DNA of 64,000 nt from Candidatus Latescibacterota bacterium (lineage in GTDB: Bacteria > Latescibacterota > UBA2968 > UBA8231): contig OZ241867.1 in assembly GCA_965203175.1 (NCBI GenBank), positions 5,312,001 through 5,376,000 of the forward strand, read 5' to 3'. This document shows, piece after piece, positions 7,358 to 52,305 of this stretch (the first letter of the stretch is position 1; each line of letters begins with the position of its first letter). The notes beneath the pieces are model-generated. The model searched no databases. It had not been told where the DNA came from and was given only the letters and a program-made list of their open reading frames with translations. Position numbers and translations under genes: made by a program.

Positions 7358-9520
7358 GTGCCCAACCTCCGCCTGCAACTTCCCTACGCCCTTCTCGGCC
7401 TCCTCCTCGCCGCTTCCAGCGCCTACTCAGCCGACTGGCCCTCCTGGCGCGGCCCCACGCAAAACGGCGTCTCCGAGGAGACCGGCCTCGTCGCATCCTG
7501 GTCGCCCATCTGGCACGCCGAATTTACTGGCCGCTCGACTCCCATCGTTCTCAATGGCCGAGTCTTTGTCATCGGCCGTCGCGGTGAAGGCATCGAACAC
7601 GAGGGCGTTGTCGCCGCCTTTGACGCCCAAGACGGCACCCTGATCTGGGAACACGCCTACAACATCTTCCACACCACCATCCCCTTCAACCGCGTCGGCT
7701 GGGCCAGCCTCGCTGGCGACCCAGAGACCGGCTACATCTATGCCCATACCGTCAGTGGACTATTCCTCTGCTTCGACCGCGACGGCAAGGTCGTCTGGTC
7801 CCGCTCGCTGACCGAGGAATTCGGGCGCATCTCCGGCTACGGCGGCCGCGTCCACACGCCCGTCGTCGATGAAGACCTCGTCATCATCAGCTATCTCAGC
7901 TCCAATTGGGGCAGCCACACGCCGGGCCGCCACCGCTACTTCGCCTTTGACAAGCGCAGCGGCGAACTCCTCTGGATTGCCACCCCCGGAGGCCGGCCAC
8001 TCGACACCACGTACTCCGTGCCTGTCGTCGCCACCATCAACGGCGTCCGCCTGCTCATCGGCGGCAATGCCGACGGCTCCATCTATGCCATGAAAATTCG
8101 CACCGGCGAGAGCGTATGGGGCTTCAAGCTCAGTCGGCGCGGCATCAACTCTTCGGTCGTCGTCGCTGGCGACAAAGTGTACGCAGCCCACGGCGAGGAA
8201 AACCTCGACAACACCGCCCTCGGCCGCGTCGTCTGCATCGACGCCACCGGCCAAGGCGACGTTACAAACACGCACGAGGTCTGGCGCTACGACAGCGTGT
8301 TCGCCGGCTACACCAGCCCGGTCTTCTACAACGGCCGCTTGTACATCACCGACAACTCGGCCAACATTCACGCGCTCGACGCCGAGACGGGCCAAGTCCA
8401 CTGGATTCACAACATCGGCACCGTCGGCAAGGGATCGCCCGTGCTGGCCGATGGCCGGCTCTACGCGCCCGAGGTCAACGGCCGCTTTGTCATCGTCGCC
8501 CCCGGCCCCGACGCCGCCGAGACGCTCGACCTCGCCGAGATTGCAATGCCCGACGGACGCCCAGCCGAACTATTCGGCTCGCCAGCCGTAGCATACGGTC
8601 GCATCTACCTTTCCACCGAAGCAGGCGTTTACTGCCTCGGCGACCCAGCGGCGCAGTTCAAGGTCGCCACGACCGCAGCTAACTATCCACGCGAGCAAGC
8701 TGCCCCAGACGCAACACCGGCGCACCTGCAAATCATCCCCGCCGAAGTAGTAGCCCAGCCCGGAGCCAGCGTATCGTTCCGCTCCCGAGCCTTCGACGCA
8801 CACGGTCGCCTAATCGGCCCGATCGATGCCGAATGGTCGCTCTCCGGTCCAGTCGGCCAACTCGACGGCAATACGCTTGTCCTCGCGGACGCACCCAGCG
8901 GCGGCAAAATCGTCGCCAACGCTGGCGAATTGACCGCCGAGGCGCGCATCGCCGTGTTACCCCCGCCGACCTACAGCGAAGACTTCGAGGGTTTCGCCAC
9001 CGACGCCTCACCAGCTTGGATCGGTACAGGCACCAAATTCAAGGTGCGCGAAATGGAAGGCAACAAGGTACTCGTCAAGCCGCCCGCCGCTCGTGGCCTG
9101 CACCGCGCCAACACCTACATCGGCGCGCCCGACATGACCGGCTACACCATCCAAGCCGACCTGTTCGGCACCAAAAAGCGCCGCGCCGTCCCCGACATGG
9201 GCCTGATCGCAAATCGCTACACCCTCGACCTGATGGGCTACCATCAACAGTTGCAGATCCGCACTTGGGCCGCCGAACTGCGGATGGCCAAAACCGTGCC
9301 CTTCGCCTGGGAAACCGGCGTCTGGTACACCATGAAGATGCAGGTGGAAATCGAGGGCGATACAGCCCACATCCGCGGCAAGATCTGGCCCCGCGACGAG
9401 CCAGAGCCAGCTAGGTGGAGCATCCAAGCGGTCGATCCCCTGCCCAACCGCAGCGGCAGCCCCGGACTCTACGGCTATTCTCCCGCTGAAATCTACTACG
9501 ACAACCTGAAAGTTTGGTAA
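7358..9520 (+). CDS. PQQ/BamB-like beta-propeller protein with C-terminal Ig-like and lectin/ConA-like domains
   Basis: Signal peptide, DWPSWRGP start, repeated xDxxxGxxxW blade motifs. Then IIPAEVVAQPG (Ig-like) and YSEDFE...WYTMK...IYYDNLKV (ConA/LamG-like). Confidence 0.85.
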   Translation: MPNLRLQLPYALLGLLLAASSAYSADWPSWRGPTQNGVSEETGLVASWSPIWHAEFTGRSTPIVLNGRVFVIGRRGEGIEHEGVVAAFDAQDGTLIWEHAYNIFHTTIPFNRVGWASLAGDPETGYIYAHTVSGLFLCFDRDGKVVWSRSLTEEFGRISGYGGRVHTPVVDEDLVIISYLSSNWGSHTPGRHRYFAFDKRSGELLWIATPGGRPLDTTYSVPVVATINGVRLLIGGNADGSIYAMKIRTGESVWGFKLSRRGINSSVVVAGDKVYAAHGEENLDNTALGRVVCIDATGQGDVTNTHEVWRYDSVFAGYTSPVFYNGRLYITDNSANIHALDAETGQVHWIHNIGTVGKGSPVLADGRLYAPEVNGRFVIVAPGPDAAETLDLAEIAMPDGRPAELFGSPAVAYGRIYLSTEAGVYCLGDPAAQFKVATTAANYPREQAAPDATPAHLQIIPAEVVAQPGASVSFRSRAFDAHGRLIGPIDAEWSLSGPVGQLDGNTLVLADAPSGGKIVANAGELTAEARIAVLPPPTYSEDFEGFATDASPAWIGTGTKFKVREMEGNKVLVKPPAARGLHRANTYIGAPDMTGYTIQADLFGTKKRRAVPDMGLIANRYTLDLMGYHQQLQIRTWAAELRMAKTVPFAWETGVWYTMKMQVEIEGDTAHIRGKIWPRDEPEPARWSIQAVDPLPNRSGSPGLYGYSPAEIYYDNLKVW

Positions 9521-10941
9521 TGACTATCGCTATTTGCTACCTCATCCTCGCCCTAACCGCTTCCGCCAGTGCCCAAACCGCCATGTGGGGCGGCTCGCCG
9601 GGGCGCAACCAAGTCTCGGACGAGAAAAACCTGCCCACCACTTGGGACGTCGAGACCGGCACAAACGTCAAGTGGCGCGCCACGCTCGGCTCGCAGACCT
9701 ACGCCGGCCCCCTAATCGCCGGCGACAAAATTTTCGTCGGCACCAACAACCAAGCCGAGCGCGATCCCAACCACAAGGGCGACCGCGGCGTGGTGATGGC
9801 CTTCTCTTTAGAGGACGGCACCTTCCTCTGGCAAATCGCCCATCCCAAGCTGCCGGCCGGCCGCGTCAACGACTGGCCGCAGCAGGGCGTCTGCTCCACC
9901 CCTTATGTCGAAGGCGACCGCCTCTACTACGTCTCCAACCGCGCCGAAGTCGTATGTCTCGACACCGAGGGCTTCCGCGACGGCGAGAACGACGGCCCCA
10001 TCGCCGACGAAGCCGCCACCGCGCCCACCAACGCGGATCTGATCTGGAAATTCGACATGATCGCCGAGCTGGACGTCTTCCCCCACAACCTCGCCACCAG
10101 CTCGCCCATAGGCGTGGACGGTCGCCTCTTCGCCCTGACCAGCAACGGCGTGGACGAGGGCCATATCCACATCCCGGCCCCCTTTGCCCCCAGCTTCATC
10201 GCCCTCGACCTGCAGACCGGCGAGCTGATCTGGGATAGCGACCTGCCCGGCGACCAGATTCTGCACGGCCAGTGGGCCAATCCTGCCTACGGCGAAGCAG
10301 GCGGCCGCAAGCAGGTAATCTTCCCCGGCGGCGACGGCTGGGTCTATGCCCTCGCACCCGACACCGGCGAACTGATCTGGAAATTCGACTGCAACCCCAA
10401 GGATTCGGTGTGGGAATTGGGCGGCCGCGGCACCCGCAACAACCTCGTCTCCACGCCCGTCTTCCACGACGGCGTGGTCTATCTCGGCGTCGGCCAAGAC
10501 CCCGAGCACGGCGAGGGCGAGGGCCACCTGTGGGCCATTGACGCCAGCGGCACCGGCGACATCACCGAGACGGGCGCAATCTGGCACTTCGGTGACAAAA
10601 ACTACAACCGCACCATCTCCACCGTCGCCATTGCCGACGGCCTGCTCTACGCCGCCGACCTGAGCGGCTTCGTCTATTGCCTCGACGCCAAGACCGGCAC
10701 CCACCACTGGACTCACGACACGTTCGCCGCGATCTGGGGCTCACCCTTTGTCGCCGACGGCAAGGTCTATATCGGCGACGAGGACGGCGACGTCGATGTG
10801 CTCAAGGCCAGCAAAACGCTCGAATTGCTCCACGAGACCAATCTGGGCAGCGCCGTGTACACCACTCCAGTCGCCCGCGACGGCGTCCTGTACATCGCCT
10901 CGCGCAACACCCTCTTCGCCATCGCGGAAGAAAACGAATGA
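9520..10941 (+). CDS. PQQ/BamB-like beta-propeller protein
   Basis: TAATG overlap. Signal peptide, MWGGSPGRN and multiple LDxxTGxxxW repeats. Confidence 0.88.
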   Translation: MTIAICYLILALTASASAQTAMWGGSPGRNQVSDEKNLPTTWDVETGTNVKWRATLGSQTYAGPLIAGDKIFVGTNNQAERDPNHKGDRGVVMAFSLEDGTFLWQIAHPKLPAGRVNDWPQQGVCSTPYVEGDRLYYVSNRAEVVCLDTEGFRDGENDGPIADEAATAPTNADLIWKFDMIAELDVFPHNLATSSPIGVDGRLFALTSNGVDEGHIHIPAPFAPSFIALDLQTGELIWDSDLPGDQILHGQWANPAYGEAGGRKQVIFPGGDGWVYALAPDTGELIWKFDCNPKDSVWELGGRGTRNNLVSTPVFHDGVVYLGVGQDPEHGEGEGHLWAIDASGTGDITETGAIWHFGDKNYNRTISTVAIADGLLYAADLSGFVYCLDAKTGTHHWTHDTFAAIWGSPFVADGKVYIGDEDGDVDVLKASKTLELLHETNLGSAVYTTPVARDGVLYIASRNTLFAIAEENE

Positions 10942-12014
10942 GCGTCTCACTAGACAAAATCGCCGCAGCCCGCGACGACCTCGACGCTCACGTCCGCGCC
11001 ATCGTCGAGTGGCACTTCAGCCCTGAGACCGGCTGCCCGTTTTGGCTCTCCTACGCGCAACAACTCGACTTCGATCCGCGCGAGCAAATCCACTCCTATG
11101 ACGACTTGGCCCTGCTCGGCCACTTTGAGGACGAGTGGCTGCGCGGCGGCCCGGTGCGCCAGTGGGTGCCCAAAGCCTACGCCGACGAGCCGATCTACGT
11201 CTTCGAGACTGGCGGCTCGACCGGCTTGCCCAAATACCGCATCAACATCCGCGACTTCCACACCGACTACGCGCTCTACAGCGAGAGCTTGTCTGAGGAG
11301 GATTTTCCCAAGGGAGCCGACTGGCTGATGCTGGGACCTTCGGGGCCGCGCCGCCTGCGCCTCGCCATCGAGTACCTCGCCCAGCTACGCGGCGGCTTGT
11401 GCTTTATGGTGGATCTCGACCCGCGCTGGGTCAACGAACTCATCCGCGCCGCCAAGATGCGCGAGTTGGAAGACTACAAAGCCCACGTCATCGAGCAGGC
11501 GCTCAAGATCCTCAAGGCCCACGACAACGTGCAGTGTGTCTTCACCACCCCCCGCCTCCTCGAAGCCCTCTGCGAAAAAGTCTCCCTGCCCAAGCTCGGC
11601 ATTAAGGGCATCTTCTGCGGCGGCACGGAAATGAACGCCCAGTTCCACCGCTTCGCCCGCGAGGAGTTGGTGCCCGGCCTCGCCTTTGTCCCCACCTACG
11701 GCAACACCCTGATGGGCCTAGCCTGCCCCAAGCCCTTTGACCCGACCGACGAATACGCCATCACCTACTACCCGCCGCAGCCACGCGCCGTCATCGAGCT
11801 GGTTGATCCCAAAGACCCCTCGCGCAAGGTCGGCTACGGTGAGACCGGCCAAGTCATGCTCACCACCCTGACCAAGGAATTTTTCATGCCTCGCTTCCTC
11901 GAACGCGATGAGGCCGAACGCGCTGAACCTATTGAGGTGTATCCTTGGGACGGGGTTAAAGATTTGCGCTTGCTGACGGAGTTGCAGGAGTCTGTGGTGG
12001 TGGGAGTGTACTGA
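10938..12014 (+). CDS. EhpF/GriC-like short adenylate-forming (acyl-activating) enzyme
   Basis: ATGA overlap. Motifs WHFSPETGCPFWL, FETGGSTGLPK (A3 loop), GGTE, PTYGNT (A5) and ERD (A7). 358 aa with no C-terminal ANL subdomain. Confidence 0.75.
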   Translation: MSVSLDKIAAARDDLDAHVRAIVEWHFSPETGCPFWLSYAQQLDFDPREQIHSYDDLALLGHFEDEWLRGGPVRQWVPKAYADEPIYVFETGGSTGLPKYRINIRDFHTDYALYSESLSEEDFPKGADWLMLGPSGPRRLRLAIEYLAQLRGGLCFMVDLDPRWVNELIRAAKMRELEDYKAHVIEQALKILKAHDNVQCVFTTPRLLEALCEKVSLPKLGIKGIFCGGTEMNAQFHRFAREELVPGLAFVPTYGNTLMGLACPKPFDPTDEYAITYYPPQPRAVIELVDPKDPSRKVGYGETGQVMLTTLTKEFFMPRFLERDEAERAEPIEVYPWDGVKDLRLLTELQESVVVGVY

Positions 12015-12191
12015 GTGTGAGTTCTATGCTTGGGTAGTGCATCAATTTGAGGAAGCCCTGATACTCGTCAATATTAAGGCTTCCGTCTGCACCTTTCCTA
12101 AATTTCAAACATGCCACTACCTATACTCGAAGAAATTCTTTAGCGACCAAAATTGTTTCGTTCCTATTGGAAACTCTACGCCGACCCCGCA

Positions 12192-12992
12192 TCAGAATCT
12201 AAATGGAGGACTGGGTTCTGCCCACCAGTAATAGATGTATATAGCTACCATGGCCACCAATACGATTTGTACCAAAATAAACACTTTCGACGAAAACGAC
12301 CTAGTCTTCTGTAATTCTTCCCATGAGGCAATCATTGAGACCATTATGACAAAAAAGAAGAAAAAAAGGAATGCTACTTGCCCTAGCGCCCCTATCTCTA
12401 TCACCTCTTTCCTATCCTCCAGTTCCCGAACATCGCCCTGCTGTTCGACTGTCCCAGAGGCGGTAATCGATGTCTGGTCGTCTCCAAAGTAGATCAGCTG
12501 CAGCATGGCTCCATCGCCCTGTTCAAGAATCGTCCAGTCTACGCCGAGTTGCCCCTCACCAATCTTCGACTTATCGAGCCGAAGACCAACTACCCCACGA
12601 GTCACCTTTTGGATGTCCGCCTCGATGATAGGATTAAGCGGTCCCGTCTTGACGACGAAGGGACTGAGTAGGTTTTTTCCTCGGATAGACTCTTCCCCGT
12701 CGTTCCAGATGATGATCTGAGCTGCAGTTACGTCTTTTTTGACGACTTCGCCGTCTAACTCAATATGTAGCCTCGAACTCTGATTCGCTCGGACAACCGC
12801 AGCCCTTGCTGAATCAACACAATAGATAAGGTCCGGACTCGTTCTGCTTGCTAGATAAAAAGAGACTGACAGAATTATTCCGATCACTCCTGAAATGCTA
12901 CCGACAATCGCAACTATAGGCTTGCTGAAGAATCGTTTTACGCTGTTTGTTGATTCCGGAGGCTTACTCTCTGTCTCATGGGAATCACTCAT
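12192..12992 (-). CDS. Hypothetical membrane protein (N-terminal TM plus two C-terminal TMs)
   Basis: Long ORF with GGAG RBS and three hydrophobic segments. No family recognised. Confidence 0.7.
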   Translation of the reverse strand: MSDSHETESKPPESTNSVKRFFSKPIVAIVGSISGVIGIILSVSFYLASRTSPDLIYCVDSARAAVVRANQSSRLHIELDGEVVKKDVTAAQIIIWNDGEESIRGKNLLSPFVVKTGPLNPIIEADIQKVTRGVVGLRLDKSKIGEGQLGVDWTILEQGDGAMLQLIYFGDDQTSITASGTVEQQGDVRELEDRKEVIEIGALGQVAFLFFFFFVIMVSMIASWEELQKTRSFSSKVFILVQIVLVAMVAIYIYYWWAEPSPPFRF

Positions 12993-13165
12993 CGTCAACT
13001 CCTTTGAAAACCATCAGGTGCGACCGTGCTGTTTGATCCGACTCCTGAGGGCCGTTATGTCAAGCAGCTCACTACAATTCTCTGACATACCACATTGATG
13101 AGTCCTTCTGAAAAGTAGCAGATAATCAAATCACCTATGAGATCACATCAACTAACTGAGATATA

Positions 13166-13690
13166 TTAGACTGTATCTTTTTCTACCATACGAAGAGCCG
13201 CCGTGACCACGACAGTCGCGTCCTCCTCTATAACGCTGTAGAATGATTTATGCTCAGTAACTGCCCGTAATGCGACACTTTCTTTCTGCCCCGGCCTACG
13301 AAAGTGGCTGTAGATATTTCGGGTTCTGCGCAGGTTATCTAGTTGCTGGTACTCGCTGGTAACAATCATACCACGAGTATGTGCTTCTTTCAGTAGCTTC
13401 GAGACACCTGCACGTTTAAGGTCGTCACGGCCTCTTGCATAAAACAACGCCGCAAGAGTTCGTTCAATATATGCGAGGCCCAAGATAGTTGTCGCCAAGA
13501 ACTGACCGTAAACAAAACAATATCTCATCTCTTCAAAAAGGCTCTTGGCCAGCAAGCCGCCGGGAAATGTCCAATACACCGCTTCCGGCGAATTATCGAT
13601 CAGCCAATTGAGCCGCGAAAGCCTACCTTCCCGGCATTGAGTATCTTCAGTATCTAGCCAGTCTGAGGCGGTTGAGGCTTTCTCGAACAA
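13166..13690 (-). CDS. Hypothetical protein with HEPN-like RxxxxH motif (DUF4145-like)
   Basis: GGAGG RBS. Helical protein with IERTL and RNIYSH motifs. Confidence 0.65.
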   Translation of the reverse strand: MFEKASTASDWLDTEDTQCREGRLSRLNWLIDNSPEAVYWTFPGGLLAKSLFEEMRYCFVYGQFLATTILGLAYIERTLAALFYARGRDDLKRAGVSKLLKEAHTRGMIVTSEYQQLDNLRRTRNIYSHFRRPGQKESVALRAVTEHKSFYSVIEEDATVVVTAALRMVEKDTV

Positions 13691-13784
13691 TTCGTTACCT
13701 CCTTCTATTTCGAAATATCTTCGGCCATCAGTTTAGCTTTATGAACCTTATGCCGTAGATATCACTCGCTGCGACTGAGGCGAA

Positions 13785-13886
13785 GCTCTCGGCGAGAACC
13801 CAGCCGAGCACATAGTCCTTTTCTACAACCTAGAGCAGCAAGCCAAGGGTACCCGCCACATCGAGAATTGCGCGGCGGTCGATCAT
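13785..13886 (-). pseudogene. abiEii: AbiEii nucleotidyltransferase toxin remnant
   Basis: ATGA overlap with abiEi. Translates MIDRRAILDVAGTLGLLL*VVEKDYVLGWVLA (EKDY motif). In-frame TAG at 13830-13832; rest of the gene missing. Confidence 0.75.
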
Positions 13887-14689
13887 GCGGACGCTGCCTT
13901 GGCCCAGCTCTCAGGCATAAGAAGGTGCCATCGGGATATGAGGCGGCGGCATGAAAGCCCCGGGTCAAGTTTGGCGTTTCCTTGAGTCAGACGCGCACGG
14001 CACGCCTCAATAAGGGTGGTAGTGCCGGGTCCTCGTTCTGCCAGAAAGCCCAAGCGCTTGAACACGGCACCGTTACCAAGCTGGTCTGCATAGGCAATCA
14101 GCTTGTCATCATCCCTGTCCTTGCGGTCGAAATAGGTTGCAAGACAGTCGGCAACATGCTGGATGCCGGCTCCGAGGTCTGGATCGTCGAGCATGTCGAT
14201 GACGGTGCGGTGAACGTCCGATATGGCGATCTGGGTTCTTCCACGCCAGACGGTCTTCGTCCCGAAGATCATACCCTGCTGGACATGCTTTAGAGTGAAG
14301 TGTGCGCTATGGCGTTGCTGGCTTTTCGCACGCACGGCCCGCGCTGTCATCACAACAATATCGCGGAAGATCTGCTCCGTCAGGTCCCAGTGTTCGGCGG
14401 CAGTCCGGCCTCCGATGTAAGCAGGCTTAAAGAGCGCAGGCACCAGCATCCAAGGATCATCGAGAACCTGCTCGCTGGCAAGGGAGTCAAGGCCAACTGG
14501 TGCGTAGGCACCCGGACCGACGCGCCGCAGCCAGCCCTGCCCGCTCCAACGGGAAAGCAGCTTGGCGGCGTCAGAACGGCTAACGCCGAGGACATCTTCA
14601 GCATCGGCGATATGAATGATGTCGCCGGATGCCCGAATAACGTCGGACAGTCTGCGGCGTCCCTTAGGTATAGCGATCTCTGAACTCAT
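13883..14689 (-). CDS. abiEi: Type IV TA antitoxin AbiEi family (wHTH regulator)
   Basis: wHTH GWLRRVGPGAY, AYIGGRTAAEHWDLTEQI, ISDVHRTVIDML and KRLGFL. Confidence 0.88.
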   Translation of the reverse strand: MSSEIAIPKGRRRLSDVIRASGDIIHIADAEDVLGVSRSDAAKLLSRWSGQGWLRRVGPGAYAPVGLDSLASEQVLDDPWMLVPALFKPAYIGGRTAAEHWDLTEQIFRDIVVMTARAVRAKSQQRHSAHFTLKHVQQGMIFGTKTVWRGRTQIAISDVHRTVIDMLDDPDLGAGIQHVADCLATYFDRKDRDDDKLIAYADQLGNGAVFKRLGFLAERGPGTTTLIEACRARLTQGNAKLDPGLSCRRLISRWHLLMPESWAKAASA

Positions 14690-14698
14690 GGCAATGTA

Positions 14699-14757
14699 AT
14701 GTATAGTGAAACTGCAAAAAATCGCGTTTTATGTGAATTTTTGCCTGTATAATACAT
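14699..14757. promoter_or_regulatory. Imperfect inverted repeat upstream of abiEi (autoregulatory operator candidate)
   Basis: ATGTAT (14699) / ATACAT (14752) and GCAAAAA (14714) / TTTTTGC (14738) share a centre near 14728. Confidence 0.4.
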
Positions 14758-14926
14758 ATATAAGAAGGGGCGAACTCTCGCAAGGAGGCCATCAAGCGTA
14801 CATCTCATCTACCAAAGGCGGGCAAATCACAAACTCTTCGACAGCGAGGAAATCAGCCCGGCCCATTGACTTTTCCATGATTTCCATATCAGATTGACCT
14901 CTAGCATAGGAAAGGAGTAGGTAAAG

Positions 14927-15199
14927 GTGGCCAGAGTTCAGTTAGTGATCCCGGATGAAGACCGTGACCGCTTCGTCCGTCAGGCGCAGAGCGAAGGCAT
15001 GACCTTGAGCGAATGGCTCAGGGTTGTCGCCCACCGACGGCTCGAAGAACAGCAGCGATCCTGCCCCTTCGAATCCCCAGCCGACCTTGAAGAGTTCTTC
15101 CGCGCCTGCGACGCATTGGAAGGCCCCGAACGGGAACCAGATTGGCAGGAGCACCTGACCGTCATCGACAAATCGCGAAAACGGTTGAGCAACTCTTGA
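14927..15199 (+). CDS. Ribbon-helix-helix (CopG/VapB-like) antitoxin, no adjacent toxin
   Basis: AAGGAG RBS. MARVQLVIPDEDRDRFVRQAQSEGMTLSEWLR fits the RHH pattern. Confidence 0.7.
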   Translation: MARVQLVIPDEDRDRFVRQAQSEGMTLSEWLRVVAHRRLEEQQRSCPFESPADLEEFFRACDALEGPEREPDWQEHLTVIDKSRKRLSNS

Positions 15200-15213
15200 G
15201 ACCAACGAAATCG

Positions 15214-15244
15214 CGGTAGGCACGTTTCTTAACCACGCCTACCG
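15214..15244. terminator. GTAGGC...GCCTAC hairpin between convergent genes (terminator or REP-like)
   Basis: CGGTAGGC (15214-15221) pairs with GCCTACCG (15237-15244). Confidence 0.45.
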
Positions 15245-15260
15245 ATCTCTTCGACAGCGG

Positions 15261-15887
15261 CTATTTCAATGTAATTTGAGGATCGTCCTCATACGCCGAA
15301 TCTATTTGCACCAGACGCTCTAAAATCAGACAGAACAACCCGAACAGAGACTTTAGTAACGCAGTCTCTTTGATAACACCGGCGCATTCAAAGTGCAACT
15401 CATCAACACCTTCGGGAAAATCAGTGCCAAATAAGCCTTCATCGTCTTTAATCCGGAGATGGATATCTGGCAATCTTTGGCACAACTCCCGTATCCTAGC
15501 ATCAGCGAATAGCAACTTTACTTTCTCTGGGCTATTGCCTTTGATTAAAAATTGTTCATCAAAAAACGGATCTCCTATTTCTATATCCTGCATGCCGAAG
15601 AATTTGCCAATTGAACTGAAGAACCCTTCGTGTGAAATATTGAAATAGAGACCATCCTTGTTTATAAACGGTGCGCGCATCCGGGTGTATATCGTTGCAG
15701 TCGTCGTTGATCCGGTAGATACTGTAACCGTACAAGTATCAAGTACAATTTGCCACTCACCGTGTTTATACACGACGACATTATCGTCCCAAAAACCTCC
15801 CTCAATGAATTCACCGCCTATATCTGCAGCAATCTGTGTCCAGATTTCATCCTTGGACGGACCAAAAAAAGATCTGCGTTTACTCAT
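15261..15887 (-). CDS. Hypothetical protein (DUF3137-like)
   Basis: Start MSKRRSFFGPSKDEIW with GGAGG RBS. TRMRAPF and QDIEIGDPFFDEQF look like conserved motifs. Confidence 0.7.
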   Translation of the reverse strand: MSKRRSFFGPSKDEIWTQIAADIGGEFIEGGFWDDNVVVYKHGEWQIVLDTCTVTVSTGSTTTATIYTRMRAPFINKDGLYFNISHEGFFSSIGKFFGMQDIEIGDPFFDEQFLIKGNSPEKVKLLFADARIRELCQRLPDIHLRIKDDEGLFGTDFPEGVDELHFECAGVIKETALLKSLFGLFCLILERLVQIDSAYEDDPQITLK

Positions 15888-18018
15888 TTTTTCCTCCATG
15901 CTGAAGTTGAAAACCAAAGCGCGCATGTCGTCCAGCGGCTGGATAGAAGTAGCTATGTCCACTTCCCGATGCGTCGGGATACCCCGTTGTACTATAGGAT
16001 TGATCAAAGATATTGAATACGTCAAGCGTAGCGGCAATTAGTCCCACCCGATATTTGAGCCGAACATCCACAGTGCTATAATTGGGCAGCGTAATCGCAT
16101 TCGCGTCATCCAGAAAAATGCGGTTCGCAGATTTAACAATGATGCTCCCACCCAAGCCGGACTTATGTGCAGCGTTGACGCCGCCGTAGATCACATCGCG
16201 TGGGATAGCTTTCAGGAATTTGCCGGCATACTCGCCAATTTGCGATTTAGCGGATTGGTGAGTGTAATTGAGAAACAAACTCAGGTTCGACTTCACCGTA
16301 AGCCTGAGACCCGTTTCAATCCCTCGATGGCGGCTTTTGCCGATATTCACGTACTTGAGCTGCTGAAGGTCAAAATCCAACTCATTCTTCATGTCCATGG
16401 TATATGCCGCAAGGGAAAGTTCGCCATACAGGATGTTCGGAGACAGCACCGCGCGATGATAACCTCCCACCTCAATAGATGTCCCAAACTGCGGATTTAG
16501 GTCCCCACTTGAAAGTAAGACTTTGAACGGAGGATTTTGCGGAATCTCAAAGATAATTGAACGCTGATCATAGAGCTGATCCAGTGTTGGTGCTTTGAAC
16601 GATCGCGCAACGTTGGCGTACAGGTTGCCGACGTGCCGCTCTGTTTTTACATAACGAAAATTCGCCCCCGCCTTTGGACTTAACTCCGCGTGGGTCGTTG
16701 ATTGTTCCTCCCCTTCACTCGGCGCTTTAGGGATGAACTGATCGCGAATCATATCGGCGCGCACCCCCAAGACGACGCGCAGCGTCTGCATCGGCGTAAG
16801 TTCGTATTGCAGAAACCCAGCAGCCGAGCGCCGAGTGCTAGCGCCCTTTTCCTCCAATGCACCGCGCTCAACGGCACTCATCTCACTATAGTCAGCCAAT
16901 CCACCGAGAAGGAACTGATAATACTCAGACGAGAGCGAATGCACGCCTGCGTCAATGCCAAGACTGAGACGATCTTTGCCAAGAAATCCTAGTTGGTCGA
17001 GCGTCAGTTGCAGCGAACTCGTGAGGCGCGAGGCCGTAAGTAAACGATTCTTGGTATCGGCAAATTCGGGGCTGAGTTGCAATGTCCTGACCGCATCGGA
17101 ATCACGGATCTCGCCGGAAACCGCGCTGGAGAATTTAGCCCTATCGCGAAGATTATAATCACCCGTTATCGCCGCCCGATGCGTTCGGTCGGTGGTATGG
17201 TCAAACTTATAAAACGGTGTCGATTGGGAGCGGTCGTCATCTAACTCAGCGCCAGTCAACGGGCCGGGTTCATCAAATTGCTGGAAGTGATGCGTTGTTG
17301 AAACCGCAAGTGAACCGTTGGGTTTTTGCAGTAGAGTGAAAGAACCCCCAAGGTTTTCTGCCGCGCGGTCCGCATGTTCTCGGAACCCAGCGTACCGCTC
17401 CCCCGATCCGAATGCCACATACTCTCGCCCATGCCAAAGACCACTCGTTCGCGCCTGTGCGCCAAGTGACCCAAAGTTGCCCCCCGTTGCTGAAATCTGC
17501 GTTAGAGGTGCATGCTCGCCAGCGGTAACCACATTGACAACGCCACCAATCGCAGCATCGCCGTACAGCGAAGACGCGCCCCCGCGCAGAAATTCAATCG
17601 AGCTAATACTCGCAAGCGGAATGGCACTCCAATTCATCAACCCTTTCTCAAGCTCATTGATCGGCCTCCCATCGATCAGAACCAGCAGATACTCTGCTTC
17701 GCCGCCACCGTAAAAACCGCGCAGCGTTGCCAACGGATCGCGCCCCAGCCCATCGCGGTGCAAAAACGAAATTCCTGGCAAAGTCTCCAGCGCATCCGCG
17801 AGGTTTTTCAGTGGCAGGAACTCCATCTCAGCGCTAGTACGCACCGACACAGCAGCAGTAGATTCAAAAAGCGAGTTTTCCAGCCGCTCCGCAGTGACAA
17901 TAGTTTCTTCAAGTTGATAAATCCTGTCAGAATCATCCTGCGCAACCGCACGGTCTAGGAATTGATTCGCGATACCGATGGCAACCAAGACGACTAAACT
18001 GAGACGCAGATTAAACAT
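15880..18018 (-). CDS. TonB-dependent outer-membrane receptor (BtuB/CirA-like)
   Basis: Signal peptide, TonB box ETIVTAER, plug LRG...LIDGRP...IEFLRGGASSLYG, and C-terminal NIFDQSY...GR. Confidence 0.9.
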   Translation of the reverse strand: MFNLRLSLVVLVAIGIANQFLDRAVAQDDSDRIYQLEETIVTAERLENSLFESTAAVSVRTSAEMEFLPLKNLADALETLPGISFLHRDGLGRDPLATLRGFYGGGEAEYLLVLIDGRPINELEKGLMNWSAIPLASISSIEFLRGGASSLYGDAAIGGVVNVVTAGEHAPLTQISATGGNFGSLGAQARTSGLWHGREYVAFGSGERYAGFREHADRAAENLGGSFTLLQKPNGSLAVSTTHHFQQFDEPGPLTGAELDDDRSQSTPFYKFDHTTDRTHRAAITGDYNLRDRAKFSSAVSGEIRDSDAVRTLQLSPEFADTKNRLLTASRLTSSLQLTLDQLGFLGKDRLSLGIDAGVHSLSSEYYQFLLGGLADYSEMSAVERGALEEKGASTRRSAAGFLQYELTPMQTLRVVLGVRADMIRDQFIPKAPSEGEEQSTTHAELSPKAGANFRYVKTERHVGNLYANVARSFKAPTLDQLYDQRSIIFEIPQNPPFKVLLSSGDLNPQFGTSIEVGGYHRAVLSPNILYGELSLAAYTMDMKNELDFDLQQLKYVNIGKSRHRGIETGLRLTVKSNLSLFLNYTHQSAKSQIGEYAGKFLKAIPRDVIYGGVNAAHKSGLGGSIIVKSANRIFLDDANAITLPNYSTVDVRLKYRVGLIAATLDVFNIFDQSYSTTGYPDASGSGHSYFYPAAGRHARFGFQLQHGGKNE

Positions 18019-18114
18019 AAATCAATCAAGCCCCCGAGTTTTGTTCTGCGATTACAGATTTATAGATTATAGATTGCAAGTGATTACTCCAACTCTAACC
18101 CAAAATCCAAACTC

Positions 18115-20633: not shown

Positions 20634-20688
20634 TGGGGGAGAGGAATGTGAGACGACCGCACCAAGACGCAACGGTCGCAATATGAAG

Positions 20689-21174: not shown

Positions 21175-21418
21175 GATCTATTTCGCGTTTCAATGCGTCG
21201 ATATCCACTGCAAAGACATCCACTTGCTCACGGGTTAAAGCCATGAGGAAGTCGGTGCGATCCAAACCGGCTATATGGGCGGCCTTTTCTTGCGAGATCA
21301 TTCCTCTTTCATACCAGTGGATAGCCCCAGCTAGGCGCAGTTCAGCGACGAACTCCTCTGGCGAGCGACGCAAAGCGGAAAACACTTCATCCGGCAATTC
21401 TAAGGTGACTTTAGTCAT
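21167..21418 (-). CDS. UPF0175 family antitoxin
   Basis: Motif ISQEKAAHIAGLDRTDF. Overlaps the DUF3368 gene. Confidence 0.88.
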   Translation of the reverse strand: MTKVTLELPDEVFSALRRSPEEFVAELRLAGAIHWYERGMISQEKAAHIAGLDRTDFLMALTREQVDVFAVDIDALKREIDRG

Positions 21419-21607
21419 AACCAATAATCCTGCTTTATTATCTCGAACACTTGTCTACAGATGGGAACAAGCCTTTTCTGACAAGATAGCCGTTTTCCTA
21501 GATTCGACCAAATACAGACGTTTTAACAACATAGCGCGCCACAGTGATGGTCTGCGCATAGGTCTGATCTAGTTAAATAGCCAAGTATTAGTATGAAGTT
21601 TCGTCAT

Positions 21608-43419: not shown

Positions 43420-43461
43420 AAAGAGATCGACAACAACTATAGGGTGACGTAGTGCTGACCA

Positions 43462-43736
43462 TTGGTCAGGGCTAGTGTTTTGACAGATTTACGATTAAAT
43501 CGTAAATCTGCCGGTCGCAAGACCGGCCATGAGGTTGATCTACTGGTGGAACAAGGATCGGCGCTCTACCCAATTGAGATCAAGTCTGGACAAACGGTCG
43601 GCTCGGATGCGTTCACCGCACTTACATGGTGGAGCCGCACCGCCGACAGAATCTTGCGAATGCTTCGCTGATCTATGGCGGCGACCGCGCGTACCGGCGC
43701 AACAAAGTGGCGGTGCAGCCGTGGTTTGCTATTTGA
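43462..43736 (+). pseudogene. Fragment of AAA ATPase/DUF4143 gene (C-terminal PD-(D/E)xK part, frameshifted)
   Basis: GHEVDLLVE...PIEIKSGQT in one frame, continuing LIYGGDRAYRRNKVAVQPW in another. N-terminal ATPase absent. Confidence 0.7.
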
Positions 43737-43860
43737 AGAAAATTTTCCTACCCACGAAATTCCCTATACTATACTTATGATCACTTGGTCTCCTAAAGGC
43801 GGGTCGGCAAAAAGCCTTATGGCGCGTATGAAGGGAATCAACTAACCTCGGAGTGCAAAT

Positions 43861-44097
43861 ATGACCCATCCCGAACTCCTCAAGCGCATCACGGTGCGTC
43901 CAGATATTTTTGATGGCAAGCCCATTATTCGCGACATGCGTATCTCGGTGGAACTTATCCTGAGCTTGTTAGCCCAAGGTGTAAAGCCAGAGGCCATTTT
44001 AGCCGATTACCCCGAACTCGAAGAAGCCGACCTACAGGCGTGTGTTGCCTACGCGCACGCGGTGAAACACTACCCCGATGCGATGCCGAGACTTTGA
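43861..44097 (+). CDS. DUF433 family antitoxin, no adjacent toxin
   Basis: Motifs GKPIIRDMRISV and ILADYPELEEADL. Confidence 0.88.
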   Translation: MTHPELLKRITVRPDIFDGKPIIRDMRISVELILSLLAQGVKPEAILADYPELEEADLQACVAYAHAVKHYPDAMPRL

Positions 44098-44100
44098 GCG

Positions 44101-44994
44101 TTAAATCTTCCCTGCAGCAATAAATTCCCGCAACAGTCCCAAGAAAGCCTCTGTCGCCGGCGAACGCCGTCGCTGCCGGTGCTCGATTAGGCCTATTTGG
44201 CGTTTGGCCAATCCATTGACCTGTATAGCGCGCACTTTCCCTGCGGCGACTTCTGCTTCCACCGCCACCTCTGGCACCAGCGCAATACCCAACCCAATCT
44301 CCACGTAGCGCTTGATAATCTCGATCCCGCCGAGGGTCATTTCGACCTGCAACGCCAAGCCCTCCCGCTGGAAAACCTCGTCGAGCAACTGCCGGCTAGT
44401 GCTCCCGCGTTCCAAGACCAGAAACGGATATTCGGCAAGCTGTTTGAGCCCTATCCTACGCCTTTTGCCCAGCGCGTGGTCCGGAGGACAAATGAGTACA
44501 TCCCGCCGCTCGAAAAGCGACTCGCTGACCAAGTCGCGGTGCTTGACCGGTAATGTCGCCAACCCGAACTCCACTTCGTCGTTGAGCACTAGGTTACTCA
44601 CCTCCGGCGACATTCGATTGCGGATGTCTAACTCGACCGCTGGGTAGCGAGTTCGGAACTCGGCGAGCACGTTGGGCAAAACATAGGTGCAGTTGGTATC
44701 GCTAGTCCCGATCGCCAGTCGCCCGCGCAAAACCTGCTTGAGCGCCGCAATATCGTCGCGCGCCTTCTCCAGCCGGGAGAGAACCTCTTTCGCATGAGCA
44801 AAGAGAATCTCGCCGGCCGGCGTCAGACGGAACTGTCGCCTATTGCGCTCAAGTAGGATCTCGTCCAGTTCGTTCTCCAATGCCTTGATCTGCAGGCTGA
44901 TGGCCGGCTGAGTCAGAAAGAGTTTATCGGCCGCCCGCGTAAAGCTCTGCTCGCGGACGATTTCGTAGAAACTGCGCAATTGGTAGAGATCCAT
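44101..44994 (-). CDS. LysR family transcriptional regulator
   Basis: SFTRAADKLFLTQPAISLQIKALE HTH followed by a substrate-binding domain. Confidence 0.95.
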   Translation of the reverse strand: MDLYQLRSFYEIVREQSFTRAADKLFLTQPAISLQIKALENELDEILLERNRRQFRLTPAGEILFAHAKEVLSRLEKARDDIAALKQVLRGRLAIGTSDTNCTYVLPNVLAEFRTRYPAVELDIRNRMSPEVSNLVLNDEVEFGLATLPVKHRDLVSESLFERRDVLICPPDHALGKRRRIGLKQLAEYPFLVLERGSTSRQLLDEVFQREGLALQVEMTLGGIEIIKRYVEIGLGIALVPEVAVEAEVAAGKVRAIQVNGLAKRQIGLIEHRQRRRSPATEAFLGLLREFIAAGKI

Positions 44995-45000
44995 TCGGAG

Positions 45001-45056
45001 TCCTTTATTTATATTATTTATTCTAAAGATAATATATATAAATTTTTATTATGCTA
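45001..45056. promoter_or_regulatory. AT-rich divergent promoter / LysR-binding region
   Basis: Very AT-rich stretch with an ATAAT...ATTAT dyad between divergent lysR and purA-like genes. Confidence 0.45.
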
Positions 45057-45113
45057 CAATTTCACTTATCGTCAGAGGCGTCAACCAATTCACTCTTTAA
45101 AAGGAGGTGCGCC

Positions 45114-46133
45114 ATGAGCGCCATCATCGTCGTTGACGCCTTCTGGGGCGATTCGGGTAAAGGCAAGGTCGCCGCCTTCCTCGCACAAAAACACCAAGCC
45201 GCCTACAGTGTCCGAGCCGGGGTCGGTACCAATGCCGGGCACAGTATCCTCTTTGCCGACGGCAGCGAGATTCGCACTCGGCAGTTACCCTGCGGCTTTC
45301 TCCATCCCGATACGCAACTGCGCGTCGGCAGCGGCGTCGCCGTCGATCCCGAGCAGTTTTTTGCCGAACTAGATCTACTAGACCCGAGCTATGGGCTGCG
45401 CGAGCGGACCCGCGTCGATTACCGCTGCCCGCTGATCCTGCCCGAGTACCGCCAACGCGAAGAAACCGACAGCTTTCTGCAGGAACACGGCACCACCGCC
45501 AGCGGCAGCGGCGTCGCCCGCGCCGAATTCGCCCTGCGCAAAGCGCGCCAAGCCCGCGACGAGGACATCCTCGCAGATTACACCGCCGACGTAGCCCGCG
45601 AACTCAACGAGAGCTGCCTGCGCGGTGAAACCATCGTCGTCGAGGGCAGCCAAGGCACCCACCTGTCGCTAGCCCTGAGCGATGACTATCCCGACTGCAC
45701 CTCGGACAACTGCACCACCGCCGCCTTTGCCGATGACGTCGGACTCAACTGGCGTCACATCGAAGAAGTCTGCTTGGTGGTCAAAGCACTGCCTAGCCGC
45801 GTCGGCACTGGCCCCCTACCACTGCAATTGACGCTAGCAGAAGAGGAATGCCGGGGCCTCGCCGAATACGGCGTGGCGACCGGGCGACGGCGGCGCAAAG
45901 CCTCGGGTATCTCTTGGCCTCATTTGGAAACAGCCGTCCTACTCAACGGTCCCACCCAGTTGGCCTTAACCTTCTGCGACCACCTCGACCCCGAGGTCAC
46001 CGGCGCACGCCAGCACAGCGCATTGACCGCGCCCATCCGACACCTCATCGACGAACTAGAGACGCGATTTAACATCCCCGTATCGCTCTGCGATTGTGGG
46101 GTACACTTCGAGAACCTCGTCGAGATCGCATGA
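45114..46133 (+). CDS. purA: Adenylosuccinate synthetase, short archaeal-type
   Basis: AGGAGG RBS, 339 aa. Motifs WGDSGKG, GVGTNAGH, GTTASG, EGSQG, SRVG and EYGVATGRRR. Confidence 0.8.
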   Translation: MSAIIVVDAFWGDSGKGKVAAFLAQKHQAAYSVRAGVGTNAGHSILFADGSEIRTRQLPCGFLHPDTQLRVGSGVAVDPEQFFAELDLLDPSYGLRERTRVDYRCPLILPEYRQREETDSFLQEHGTTASGSGVARAEFALRKARQARDEDILADYTADVARELNESCLRGETIVVEGSQGTHLSLALSDDYPDCTSDNCTTAAFADDVGLNWRHIEEVCLVVKALPSRVGTGPLPLQLTLAEEECRGLAEYGVATGRRRRKASGISWPHLETAVLLNGPTQLALTFCDHLDPEVTGARQHSALTAPIRHLIDELETRFNIPVSLCDCGVHFENLVEIA

Positions 46134-51024: not shown

Positions 51025-52305
51025 CTACTGGCCAATGCAGTACAGGTGCGACTCCGTCCGCAGAAAAATCCGCCCTCCGGCGATGGCCAGCGACGACAGC
51101 GTATAGGCCCCGTCGAGTTCGTTAGTCGCCAGTACCTTGTACTCTGGTCCGGCCTGCAGCACAGTCGTCACCGCGTTTTCGTTGACCACGTAGAGCTTGC
51201 CGTCGGCCAAGACCGGCGAGGAGCTGACCGACCCCTGGGCCGTGCGCTCCGGACCCCACACTACCGCACCCGTCTTGGCGTCGAGGCAGGTAGCCCGCCC
51301 GCGATCATCGACCATGTAGAAATAGTTACCATCGGTAACAGCCGAAGGCACGTCTGGTCCGCCCGCCCCCGTCCACTTCCACGCCAAGTGACTCTCGCTA
51401 ACGTCTCCCGTGCCACCAGCGCGGAACGCTAGCACCGGATTGCGGCGACTGGTCGCGTACACCATCCCAGCAACCGCAACCGGCGAACCAACCACTCGGT
51501 AATTCCGCTCCTTGCCCGGATTCAAGCCGCCTGCCCTCCACACCTCCTCGCCGGTAGCCGGATCGTGGCCGGTGAGGTAGTCCCCACCGGAGACGACGAT
51601 TTGCGTCTGGCCATCGTATTCTAGGACCACAGGCGTGGTATAAGCATCCGGCGACTCGCCCGGCGCGTCGGTTGGCCGCTCCTGCCACCACGCGACCTTA
51701 CCGGTGGCCGCGTCAAAGGCGATCAGGTAGGAAGGATCGTCCGTGTTCATCCCGTGCAGGACCTCGACGAAGAGCTTGCCATCGTAGAGCAAGGGCGAGG
51801 AGGCGTAGCCCCACATCAGGCCGAAGTCGCCGTGCTCGGCCTGCAAGTCGTAGTGCCACAGTTCCTCACCATCCATGTCAAAGGCCCGGATCATTCCCGT
51901 GCCCGTAACGGCCAGCACGCGCTCGCCGTCCGTGACCGGCGAAGGCGAGGTGTTGTTGTGCTTGCGCCAATAGGCATTGCCCTCGTCGAGCGTGCGCTGC
52001 CACAACACGCTGCCATCAGCCGCTGACAAGCAGCCCAAAAGCAGTTTTTCGCCGCCCTGGATCTCCTCGCCCGTATTGGGCGACATCAAAAAGACCCGCT
52101 CGCCCCACACCACCGGCGTACTCCCGCTCCAAGAAGGCAGCTTCCTACTCCAGACTACATTCTCGCTCGTACTCCAAGTCGTCGGCAGGTTCACGGCTTG
52201 GCTAACGCCGTTGTGGTCGGGACCGCGCCACTGGGGCCAGTATTCTTCAGCACTGGCGCGCAAAGCGGCCAAAAATAGCAGTGAGACGATTGCGTAATTT
52301 TTCAT
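51025..52305 (-). CDS. PQQ-like beta-propeller protein
   Basis: Signal peptide, WPQWRGP, SPSPVTDG and LDAKTG..VW repeats. Confidence 0.9.
   Translation of the reverse strand: MKNYAIVSLLFLAALRASAEEYWPQWRGPDHNGVSQAVNLPTTWSTSENVVWSRKLPSWSGSTPVVWGERVFLMSPNTGEEIQGGEKLLLGCLSAADGSVLWQRTLDEGNAYWRKHNNTSPSPVTDGERVLAVTGTGMIRAFDMDGEELWHYDLQAEHGDFGLMWGYASSPLLYDGKLFVEVLHGMNTDDPSYLIAFDAATGKVAWWQERPTDAPGESPDAYTTPVVLEYDGQTQIVVSGGDYLTGHDPATGEEVWRAGGLNPGKERNYRVVGSPVAVAGMVYATSRRNPVLAFRAGGTGDVSESHLAWKWTGAGGPDVPSAVTDGNYFYMVDDRGRATCLDAKTGAVVWGPERTAQGSVSSSPVLADGKLYVVNENAVTTVLQAGPEYKVLATNELDGAYTLSSLAIAGGRIFLRTESHLYCIGQ

Follow-up and report, generated by a model that had tools for sequence, protein, structure and literature searches.

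What does a bacterium gain from eight exported propeller proteins encoded among the enzymes of a pathway predicted to halogenate, reduce and glycosylate an acid? The question is raised by a 64-kb stretch of DNA (hereafter the window) from the 6.58-Mb single-contig genome of a Candidatus Latescibacterota bacterium (completeness 93%; contig OZ241867.1, positions 5,312,001 to 5,376,000), in which such genes extend from position 7358 to 52305. We found that they belong to a real, widespread gene cluster, carried by many mostly uncultured bacteria of several phyla. As a cluster for tailoring and transport, it has a halogenase, an aryl-coenzyme A (CoA) ligase and a two-protein acid reductase at its base; clusters of this class have been noticed before. 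The fixed complement of exported propellers is its unexplained and most interesting part. Our preferred reading, held tentatively, is that of one conserved system that imports, tailors and exports a carboxylic acid, probably an aromatic one.

Gene families were assigned with Pfam and NCBIfam profiles. The assignments bear out the gene content and order proposed in an earlier note on this DNA, except for a gene named there as a drug/metabolite transporter (DMT), which has no family match (x2 below). The thirteen translationally coupled junctions claimed in that note are all present where it placed them, with start and stop codons overlapping as ATGA, GTGA or TAATG at 13/13. There is no start codon at 47758, and an in-frame GTG at 47746, which overlaps the end of the LolD gene, is probably the start of the FtsX gene. 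The core enzymes are single-copy in the genome. With three inserted blocks set aside, the 5' half of the array reads in this order:

7358..9520, + strand: p1, exported 720-aa protein (PQQ_2, 3e-42)
9520..10941, + strand: p2, exported 473-aa propeller (PQQ_2, 8.7e-27)
10938..12014, + strand: a1, EhpF/GriC-like single-domain adenylating enzyme, 358 aa
18115..19509, + strand: a2, EhpG/GriD-like reductase of the aldehyde dehydrogenase (ALDH) superfamily, 464 aa (Aldedh, 1.1e-13)
19506..20633, + strand: a3, iron-containing alcohol dehydrogenase (Fe-ADH, 1.3e-44; ADH_Fe_C, 3.4e-37)
28426..29514, + strand: p3, exported 362-aa minimal propeller (Beta-prop_ACSF4, 232.8 bits, cut-off 133)
29511..30848, + strand: r1, HemN-like radical S-adenosylmethionine (SAM) enzyme, 445 aa (Radical_SAM and HemN_C)
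30862..35802, + strand: p4-p7, four tandem exported propellers of 415, 405, 413 and 414 aa (PQQ_2)

The 3' half continues with:

35799..37934, + strand: t1, TonB-dependent receptor of the siderophore class (plug and barrel domains)
37931..39208, + strand: a4, PaaK-family aryl/acyl-CoA ligase (AMP-binding_C_2)
39205..40461, + strand: a5, halogenase-type flavoenzyme, a predicted flavin-dependent halogenase (Trp_halogenase, 6.4e-29)
40458-40682, + strand: m1, small membrane protein (Pfam DUF3311)
40679-42133, + strand: m2, sodium:solute symporter (SSS; Pfam SSF)
42136..43419, + strand: a6, GT4 glycosyltransferase (Glycos_transf_1 and Glyco_trans_4)
46094-46669, + strand: x2, small polytopic membrane protein (about five hydrophobic segments)

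The 3' end consists of:

46671-47087, + strand: x3, YbgC-like hotdog thioesterase (4HBT_2/4HBT)
47084-47761, + strand: x4, LolD/YbbA-like ATPase (ABC_tran)
47746-51018, + strand: x5, duplicated FtsX permease of about 1090 aa (two FtsX domains)
51025..52305, - strand: p8, exported 426-aa propeller, convergent with the FtsX gene (PQQ_2, 4.7e-36)

Is this order peculiar to one genome? Species-representative genomes were searched with two anchors. For the radical SAM gene, relatives are encoded in 595 of the 601 candidate stretches, and the loci used are the best 80; for the GT4 gene the figures are 417 of 459, with 79 loci kept. All window proteins were run by tblastn against these loci, matches were counted within ±10 kb, and gene calls in high-G+C loci were strand- and GC3-aware. 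The closest public relatives are bins labelled Candidatus Latescibacterota, whose radical SAM protein is 89-96% identical to that of the window. The 80 radical SAM loci contain p3 (74), Fe-ADH (66), the halogenase (52), the PaaK-family ligase (50), p2 (32), the ALDH-like gene (28) and a1 (18). The 79 GT4 loci contain the thioesterase (57), LolD (51), FtsX (38), the halogenase (38), the symporter (37), DUF3311 (35), the receptor (32) and the small membrane protein (30). The genes that flank the cluster in the window (M81 peptidase, TauD, RES/Xre, CobD, CbiZ and others) were not found in the 80 radical SAM loci, single weak matches excepted.

Loci L018, L020, L071, L078-L080 and L163 carry the complete order as one uninterrupted run from which the three blocks are missing. 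By submitter label, multi-gene synteny extends over Latescibacterota, Poribacteria, KSB1, Planctomycetota (Gemmataceae) and Acidobacteriota (Vicinamibacteria, Thermoanaerobaculia, Holophagales), as well as bins labelled Gemmatimonadota and Calditrichaceae. The earlier note had proposed one recurrent system, to be given up if its genes did not co-occur elsewhere; they do, including under Planctomycetota and Acidobacteriota labels, and the proposal of one system, as opposed to a set of separate known pathways, stands. The cultured Gemmata algarum JC673 carries PaaK, p1, p2, a1, three DUF1559 genes on the other strand, a2, a3 and p3, in that order, and has its halogenase and GT4-thioesterase genes elsewhere in the genome. 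Across all 159 loci, a set that includes close kin and regions fetched twice (L001 and L082 are the same contig), p3 is followed by the radical SAM gene at 77/89 p3 hits, Fe-ADH by p3 at 68/78, DUF3311 by the symporter at 55/55, x2 by x3 at 29/34 and LolD by FtsX at 43/62, while a p4-p7-type propeller lies immediately 5' of a TonB receptor in 42/47 cases.

Such an array might also be a chance neighbourhood, in which unrelated operons stand side by side in this lineage. Three unrelated gene blocks do interrupt it, and its modules are dispersed in Gemmataceae. Yet the same order recurs under several phylum labels, which makes it more than chance, the phyletic patterns at either end of the cluster are almost the same, and 13 overlaps tie its genes together. 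We regard chance as a very improbable explanation. Within the window's phylum, a1 occurs in 98/168 genomes and the halogenase in 96/168, with tallies that are identical by family and, bar two genera, by genus. In a FastTree phylogeny of 80 radical SAM sequences, from which rows more than 85% identical to the window protein were dropped, the sequences group mostly by phylum label (3 changes for the 45 poribacterial rows, 2 for the 17 acidobacterial ones), and inheritance thus looks largely vertical. Recent transfer among sponge symbionts was rejected on the basis of the same grouping.

If the cluster is one system, which chemistry does it carry out? The clearest answer comes from a1 and a2. The only solved relative of a1 is EhpF (PDB 3hgu/3l2k; E 1.4e-43), to which residues 9-358 align over positions 17-369 of 369. 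It is a single-domain EhpF-type ANL adenylase, without C-terminal domain, in which 152 residues, including the TGGSTG..K loop, are at least 95% conserved in 19 rows. In a2, the catalytic Cys282 and the oxyanion Asn158 are retained, and His246 takes the position of the general-base Glu of hydrolytic ALDHs; this His is conserved in at least 95% of 28 orthologue rows. The two genes follow each other with no gap gene in L018, L020 and L163, and their sizes match those of the ehpF-ehpG pair. Homologues of a2 encoded on plasmids (26-30% identity, 92-99% coverage) lie directly 3' of EhpF-type genes, and the contexts of a2 homologues are an Escherichia coli plasmid phenazine cluster and Streptomyces clusters. 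GriC and GriD are described, in the accessible text of their report (PMC10179220), as a two-protein carboxylic acid reductase in which GriC makes the acyl-AMP, which GriD then reduces to the aldehyde. The predicted path from acid to aldehyde by a1 and a2, and on to the alcohol by a3, is our best-supported step, because of this evidence for the reductase pair and the coupling of the Fe-ADH gene to it.

The EhpF-like family numbers 268 clusters (E <= 1e-30) in a set of 1.84 billion representatives. Two of its members are fusions, one with a class-III aminotransferase (824 aa, P0068) and one with a Zn-dependent alcohol dehydrogenase (725 aa, P0086); fusions of this kind to aldehyde-using enzymes suggest a family-wide coupling of acid activation to aldehyde-using steps. 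Three other possibilities were rejected. Frames of 833-835 aa in one genus, which might have been fused a1-a2 proteins, are spurious upstream extensions, with a stop between the genes. A LuxE/LuxC interpretation found no LuxE or LuxC Pfam match at E <= 0.001, and an endogenous route to 3-amino-4-hydroxybenzoic acid (3,4-AHBA) found no DHQS-II (PF01959) match in the genome. The junction between a1 and a2 is interrupted in several lineages: here by 6.1 kb of low G+C that contain an AbiEi-type gene and, divergent from a2, a second TonB receptor; in Gemmata algarum (L170, 10651-16134) by three DUF1559/N-methyl genes on the opposite strand; and in Poribacteria by one or two extra genes.

The second enzyme to consider is a5, which matches the solved halogenases 8zop, 5buk, ChlB4, PltA, the CndH-type 3e1t and CmlS with E values of 4e-67 to 3e-49, and solved halogenases overall with 4e-67 to 1e-47. 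The GxGxxG flavin motif is present as GGGPAG (residues 8-13), in alignment with five solved chains of the halogenase family, and WxWxIP as W214-F-W216-Y-I218-P219, aligned with the 5dbj (PltA), 5buk, ChlB4 and 8zop chains. In 'FPRKH', K69 aligns to the second Lys of 'FPKKFG' in 5dbj and 5buk, a segment that we take to be the catalytic Lys site of halogenases. The three elements, GxGxxG, Lys and WxWxIP, are given as the defining motifs of flavin-dependent halogenases in the accessible part of a published account (PMC6644159). The protein is below the cut-off of all NCBIfam halogenase models (CmlS 210 bits vs 900). With its motifs intact, a5 is probably a flavin-dependent halogenase, and halogenating activity is predicted. 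The ligase a4 matches the phenylacetate-CoA ligase 4r1l (1.4e-57) and falls below the PaaK cut-offs (TIGR02155 230.6 bits vs 646.3; NF041878 271.4 vs 700), which by its sequence places it in the wider PaaK family, not as a PaaK equivalog.

The remaining enzymes are assigned to families more than to functions. A CxxxCxxC motif is present in r1 and conserved in its orthologues; the protein matches HemN in the PDB (3.9e-38), is below all equivalog cut-offs (HemN, TIGR00538, 207.5 bits vs 324.95; STM4012 199; ChuW 195), and its fixed neighbours are not haem genes. The glycosyltransferase a6 has an N-terminal CGSC motif, kept as CGSC or CGTC in L012, L071, L079, L121 and L122. The thioesterase x3 reaches 65.1 bits on TIGR00051 (cut-off 68.7). 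Among the transport proteins, t1 exceeds the TIGR01783 siderophore-receptor subfamily cut-off (259.4 bits vs 223.5) and has Fiu as its best equivalog, below cut-off. No Pfam or NCBIfam family matches x2. The ATPase x4 scores 250.9 bits on LolD (cut-off 307.75), 222 on the YbbA-like and 165 on the DevA-like model, and hydropathy gives x5 a periplasmic domain of about 470 aa. In two Gemmataceae loci (L122, 11753-12724; L151, 11825-12793) a gene of 322-323 aa lies between the thioesterase and LolD; the L122 copy has the alpha-alpha toroid fold of prenyltransferases and terpene cyclases by Pfam, and for the L151 copy the match is one of N-terminal sequence only.

These families might serve uptake and breakdown instead of synthesis. 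The cluster would then scavenge an aromatic, possibly halogenated, acid from a host or from dissolved organic matter: the receptor and propellers would capture or process it, the symporter would import it, the PaaK-family ligase would activate it, and the other enzymes would degrade or detoxify it. Receptor, symporter, ligase and hotdog thioesterase are all present, and such a set resembles the transport and activation genes of phenylacetate catabolism. In addition, the cluster encodes no scaffold-forming enzyme, and tetrathionate hydrolase, a propeller-fold enzyme, is among the best structural matches of its propellers. On the other hand, a2 is without the general-base Glu needed to oxidize aldehydes to free acids, EhpF/EhpG and GriC/GriD are biosynthetic reductases, and a5 keeps the halogenase-specific WxWxIP and Lys. 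Catabolism has no use for a GT4 enzyme or a MacB-type exporter, and there are no ring-opening or beta-oxidation genes among the assigned genes of the window. Salvage therefore seems to us improbable.

What, then, are the propellers for? The window holds 8 of the roughly 21 open frames of the genome that match PQQ_2. All eight have N-terminal signal-like sequences with Ala-x-Ala-type sites and no lipobox Cys, and signal peptides are also found in the p3 orthologues that we inspected. They fall into five families: p1, p2, p3, p4-p7 and p8. The four tandem proteins are 52-80% identical among themselves and 19-29% identical to p3 and p8, and the family counts one to three copies in close kin. Over their final 240 nt, p4 and p5 are identical at 224/240 positions, against 66% in the preceding 360 nt (window 30862-33323), which points to gene conversion. 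Orthologues of p1 are 39-61% identical in 8 loci, p2 has a median identity of 62% in its 32 radical SAM-anchored loci, and p8 orthologues (62-96% identity) adjoin FtsX or p1 in relatives. A p4-type paralogue, 49% identical, lies elsewhere in the genome (G000:C1:1088144-1089355; L172, 8136-9413). It has a hybrid histidine kinase on one side and a Peripla_BP_6 binding protein on the other, with TPR and sulfatase genes next in line; in the poribacterial locus L028, too, a Peripla_BP_6 gene is found 3' of the p4-type propellers. To our knowledge, few roles have been established for secreted propellers in bacteria beyond that of BamB.

The structures resemble those of small scaffold proteins. The AlphaFold2 model of p1 (predicted local distance difference test, pLDDT, 79.1) is an eight-bladed PQQ_2-type propeller followed by a C-terminal beta-rich region of about 290 aa. 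Over residues 21-435 it matches YxaL (Z 37.3), BamB (34.6) and Rv3035 (33.1); alcohol and methanol dehydrogenases dependent on pyrroloquinoline quinone (PQQ) come only at ranks 20-24 (Z 26.6-27.2). The C-terminal region matches no Pfam family, and the matches of the structure search covered only the propeller. The model of p3 (pLDDT 94.4) is a bare eight-bladed propeller, with the designed Cake8, tetrathionate hydrolase, BamB and YxaL at the top of the Foldseek matches and no PQQ dehydrogenase among those listed to rank 50. Its gene is translationally coupled to that of the radical SAM enzyme, and its conserved residues are mostly Gly, Asp and Trp of the repeats plus two Cys. All eight propellers score 30-77 bits on the quinoprotein model TIGR03075 (cut-off 480), from which we conclude that they are probably BamB-like scaffolds or small enzymes, not quinoproteins; on the BamB model TIGR03300 they score 49-152 bits (cut-off 285.2). 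The claim of the earlier note that pqq genes are absent agrees with our searches: PqqC has no match in the 93%-complete genome, although control genomes gave none either, and the only PqqE matches reach 65 and 56 bits (cut-off 381).

The earlier note proposed that the propellers bind the product of the pathway or use it as a cofactor, a claim that our results do not support. In such a reading the product, for example a halogenated aryl glycoside, would be a new periplasmic cofactor or metallophore, and the five propeller families would be its dedicated carriers or apo-protein clients, possibly in a shuttle that runs from p8 and the MacB-type exporter through the periplasm to p4-p7 and the receptor. 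Each module has its own exported propeller family as a fixed part across phyla, the receptor is of the siderophore class, and some 21 PQQ_2-type frames, eight of them here, occur in a genome where no PQQ synthesis genes were found. Against this idea stand the minimal, BamB/YxaL-like folds with scores far from the quinoprotein cut-off, the conservation of p3, which is mostly that of repeat positions, the failure to identify any ligand or metal site, and the paralogue outside the cluster in a different context. We consider the cofactor or metallophore, shuttle included, decidedly unlikely.

The same structures invite a different explanation, in which the reductase pair, GT4, x2, the thioesterase and the MacB-type transporter would build a glycosylated component of the envelope from an acid of the cell's own and then extract it. 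The propellers would be periplasmic scaffolds of this machine, and the halogenase, PaaK-family ligase, receptor and symporter a lineage-variable addition. GT4, thioesterase, LolD and FtsX are the most widely kept block and reach Planctomycetota without receptor or PaaK nearby, and bins labelled Limnoglobus carry a prenyltransferase-fold gene between thioesterase and LolD. The models of p1 and p3 are nearest to YxaL, BamB and Rv3035. BamB is a scaffold of the beta-barrel assembly machinery (BAM). In the accessible text on Rv3035, this protein is an eight-bladed periplasmic scaffold that binds FecB with a dissociation constant of 27.5 nM (PMC13041763). However, the halogenase is co-inherited with a1 almost perfectly within the phylum, both contexts seen for the EhpF family are aromatic-acid clusters, and no lipid-synthesis gene is present. 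The system is also missing from 70/168 genomes of the phylum, and thus is not an essential envelope function. An envelope machine is unlikely in our view.

We return to the import, tailoring and export of an acid. Gene families, motifs, export signals, synteny and co-inheritance are observed directly. Genes for non-ribosomal peptide synthetases, polyketide synthases or chorismate metabolism are absent among the window genes assigned by Pfam and NCBIfam; since no scaffold-forming enzyme is encoded and there are two importers, the system is read as acting on an acid that comes from outside. The acid would cross the outer membrane through the siderophore-class TonB receptor and the inner membrane through the DUF3311/SSS symporter, and the PaaK-family ligase would convert it to the CoA thioester. 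The halogenase and the HemN-like radical SAM enzyme would then modify it, perhaps while bound to CoA, the latter by C-methylation or side-chain decarboxylation, and the hotdog thioesterase would release it. The EhpF/EhpG-type pair would reduce the carboxylate to the aldehyde by adenylation, formation of a thioacyl-Cys and hydride transfer, the Fe-ADH would yield the alcohol, and GT4 would glycosylate it. Finally, the MacB-type ATP-binding cassette (ABC) transporter and the small membrane protein would bring the product out to the periplasm or the outer leaflet. There, the eight exported BamB-like propellers may act as scaffolds, carriers or processing enzymes, p4-p7 with the receptor, p8 with the exporter and p1-p3 with the reductase and radical SAM module. 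The earlier note had put forward this logic (import, activation, halogenation, radical SAM chemistry, carboxylate reduction, glycosylation, export), which fits all the family assignments that were tested; the substrate class, the step order, CoA as the carrier and every propeller role are what we infer.

Several points weigh against this reading. PltA and the 5buk protein, the closest solved halogenases, act on carrier-bound substrates, and no carrier protein is encoded in the cluster: as the earlier note had claimed, PP-binding domains have no match in the window (six genome-wide), and a carrier protein among the small open reading frames (ORFs) was rejected for this reason. The halogenase would thus use a CoA thioester, which we infer, and no flavin reductase gene was recognised in the cluster by Pfam or NCBIfam. 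The radical SAM enzyme has its highest score with the HemN model itself, and no gene of the genome resembles HemN more; it may have a haem-related role. The p4-like paralogue elsewhere in the genome is not beside a receptor, so that the link of this family to receptors is not universal. In Gemmataceae the modules are spread over several loci, and poribacterial loci often have no receptor, symporter, GT4 or ABC genes within 10 kb, which implies that the modules may be separable. Finally, the adjacency counts are inflated, and the independence of the loci overstated, because they include close kin and regions fetched twice.

The three blocks that interrupt the array in the window are as follows:

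12015..18114, - strand: accessory block 1, with an AbiEi-type antitoxin gene, unassigned ORFs and a second TonB-dependent receptor (15880-18018)
20634..28425, - strand: accessory block 2, with a DUF3368 gene, a 1286-aa STAND-like NTPase, a PhyH-like gene and an MsbA-like ABC gene
43420..46093: accessory block 3, with small ORF remnants, a LysR gene (44101-44994, - strand) and an adenylosuccinate-synthetase-like gene (45051-46133)

They were announced as such in the earlier note, and they are present; the first two are low in G+C and absent from relatives, and the content of the third is to be corrected to LysR plus a short PurA-like gene. Blocks 1 and 2 have a G+C content of 0.48-0.54 (0.48-0.53 in block 1, about 0.54 in block 2), against 0.59-0.65 in the core, and are missing from relatives with contiguous genes (L018, L020, L078, L079, L163). 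Block 1 does not separate a1 from a2 in L018, L020 and L163, and its AbiEi and TonB-receptor genes occur in at most 2/80 and 3/80 radical SAM loci, all of close kin; most relatives lack block 2 between a3 and p3. The LysR and PurA-like genes of block 3 are found in 15/79 GT4-anchored loci, again all of close kin. The PurA-like gene (360 aa), which adjoins LysR between GT4 and x2, scores 296 bits on NF003295 (cut-off 368) and 126 bits on the PurZ model (cut-off 300). In block 2, the 1286-aa protein (21608-25468), whose STAND-NTPase matches are below cut-off, adjoins the PhyH-like and MsbA-like ABC genes, and the block may be a defence or signalling island.

Genes of toxin-antitoxin type are scattered over the region. 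A pair formed by an Xre-like antitoxin and a RES-domain toxin lies upstream of the cluster (2818-3923), the AbiEi and DUF3368 genes are in the blocks, and the small ORFs at 43.4-44.1 kb resemble toxin-antitoxin remnants. Downstream (53334-58213) are CobD/CbiB, CbiZ, a PhyH-like gene and a DUF6785/DUF6784 membrane protein; a DUF6785-like gene (33% identity) is also near the reductase module in L162. The window has no Rfam match at gathering score, which gives no support to control by a riboswitch or another RNA, and a promoter and terminator scan of 42-53 kb gave background level.

If the cluster is one pathway, it links hundreds of genomes from phyla about which little is known; among its carriers are dominant sponge symbionts as well as Planctomycetota and Acidobacteriota of soil and freshwater. 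In it, secreted propellers are found together with a halogenase, a radical SAM enzyme and a two-protein acid reductase of a rare type, and knowledge of the product would assign a function to the large 'PQQ-like' protein family. The cluster might also account for some of the orphan halogenated metabolites of sponges. Were the cofactor or carrier shuttle true, a propeller-based system would be common to Latescibacterota, Poribacteria, Acidobacteriota and Planctomycetota. Because the cultured Gemmata algarum carries orthologues, these ideas are directly testable.

How does the cluster compare with known systems? EhpF/EhpG, of the D-alanylgriseoluteic acid phenazine cluster, share with it the full-length alignment of a1 and the position of an ALDH-superfamily gene after the adenylase; GriC/GriD, of the grixazone pathway, share the two-protein make-up of a carboxylic acid reductase. 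Unlike these systems, the window has no genes for making phenazine or 3,4-AHBA, the identity of a2 to its plasmid homologues is low (26-30%), the pair is split by the 6.1-kb insertion, and Fe-ADH and an exported propeller follow. The halogenases PltA, 5buk, 5bva, ChlB4 and CmlS match a5 over nearly its full length and share GxGxxG, the aligned Lys and WxWxIP, whereas neither a carrier protein nor a flavin reductase was recognised in the window cluster.

The ATPase and permease resemble type VII ABC transporters (MacB, LolCDE, YbbAP) and DevBCA, with a LolD/YbbA/DevA-like ATPase and an FtsX permease with large periplasmic domains. The pairing of a thioesterase and a glycosyltransferase with such a transporter recalls tesA-ybbAP and the export of heterocyst glycolipids. 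In contrast with these systems, all equivalog cut-offs are missed, the permease is duplicated (about 1090 aa), and there is no membrane-fusion adaptor or TolC-like gene among the cluster genes of the window. BamB, YxaL and Rv3035 are exported small eight-bladed scaffolds and the best structural matches of p1 and p3; the window propellers differ from them in having no lipobox and in forming eight copies of five families inside an enzyme operon. In the accessible text of its report, Rv3035 forms a tight periplasmic complex that supports the activity of a membrane glycosyltransferase, an arabinofuranosyltransferase (PMC13041763).

The nearest precedent is the class of 'Halo_AMP' clusters of sponge microbiomes (Loureiro et al., bioRxiv 10.64898/2026.08.03.742642), the only result of a full-text literature search for PQQ-like proteins with a halogenase, a phenylacetate-CoA ligase, radical SAM and TonB. 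The statement of the earlier note that no characterised pathway has this make-up still holds, as far as the accessible text of that 2026 preprint goes, but the architecture itself had already been noted there. According to that text, the clusters combine a flavin-dependent halogenase with an AMP-binding enzyme, frequently with PQQ-like domains, radical SAM enzymes, TonB transporters, glycosyltransferases, thioesterases and toxin-antitoxin genes, and none is linked to a product (10.64898/2026.08.03.742642). Their origins include Latescibacterota and Poribacteria, and their best gene hits are BagE, YtkN, Bmp2 and BrtI (10.64898/2026.08.03.742642). The focus of the accessible text is a cytochrome P450-bearing acidobacterial group (CC A), whereas the window cluster is without P450, and the same text reports neither the reductase pair, nor the pairing of propellers with receptors, nor the spread to free-living Planctomycetota. 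By the definition that it gives, the window cluster, with a5 together with a4 and a1, is a Halo_AMP cluster.

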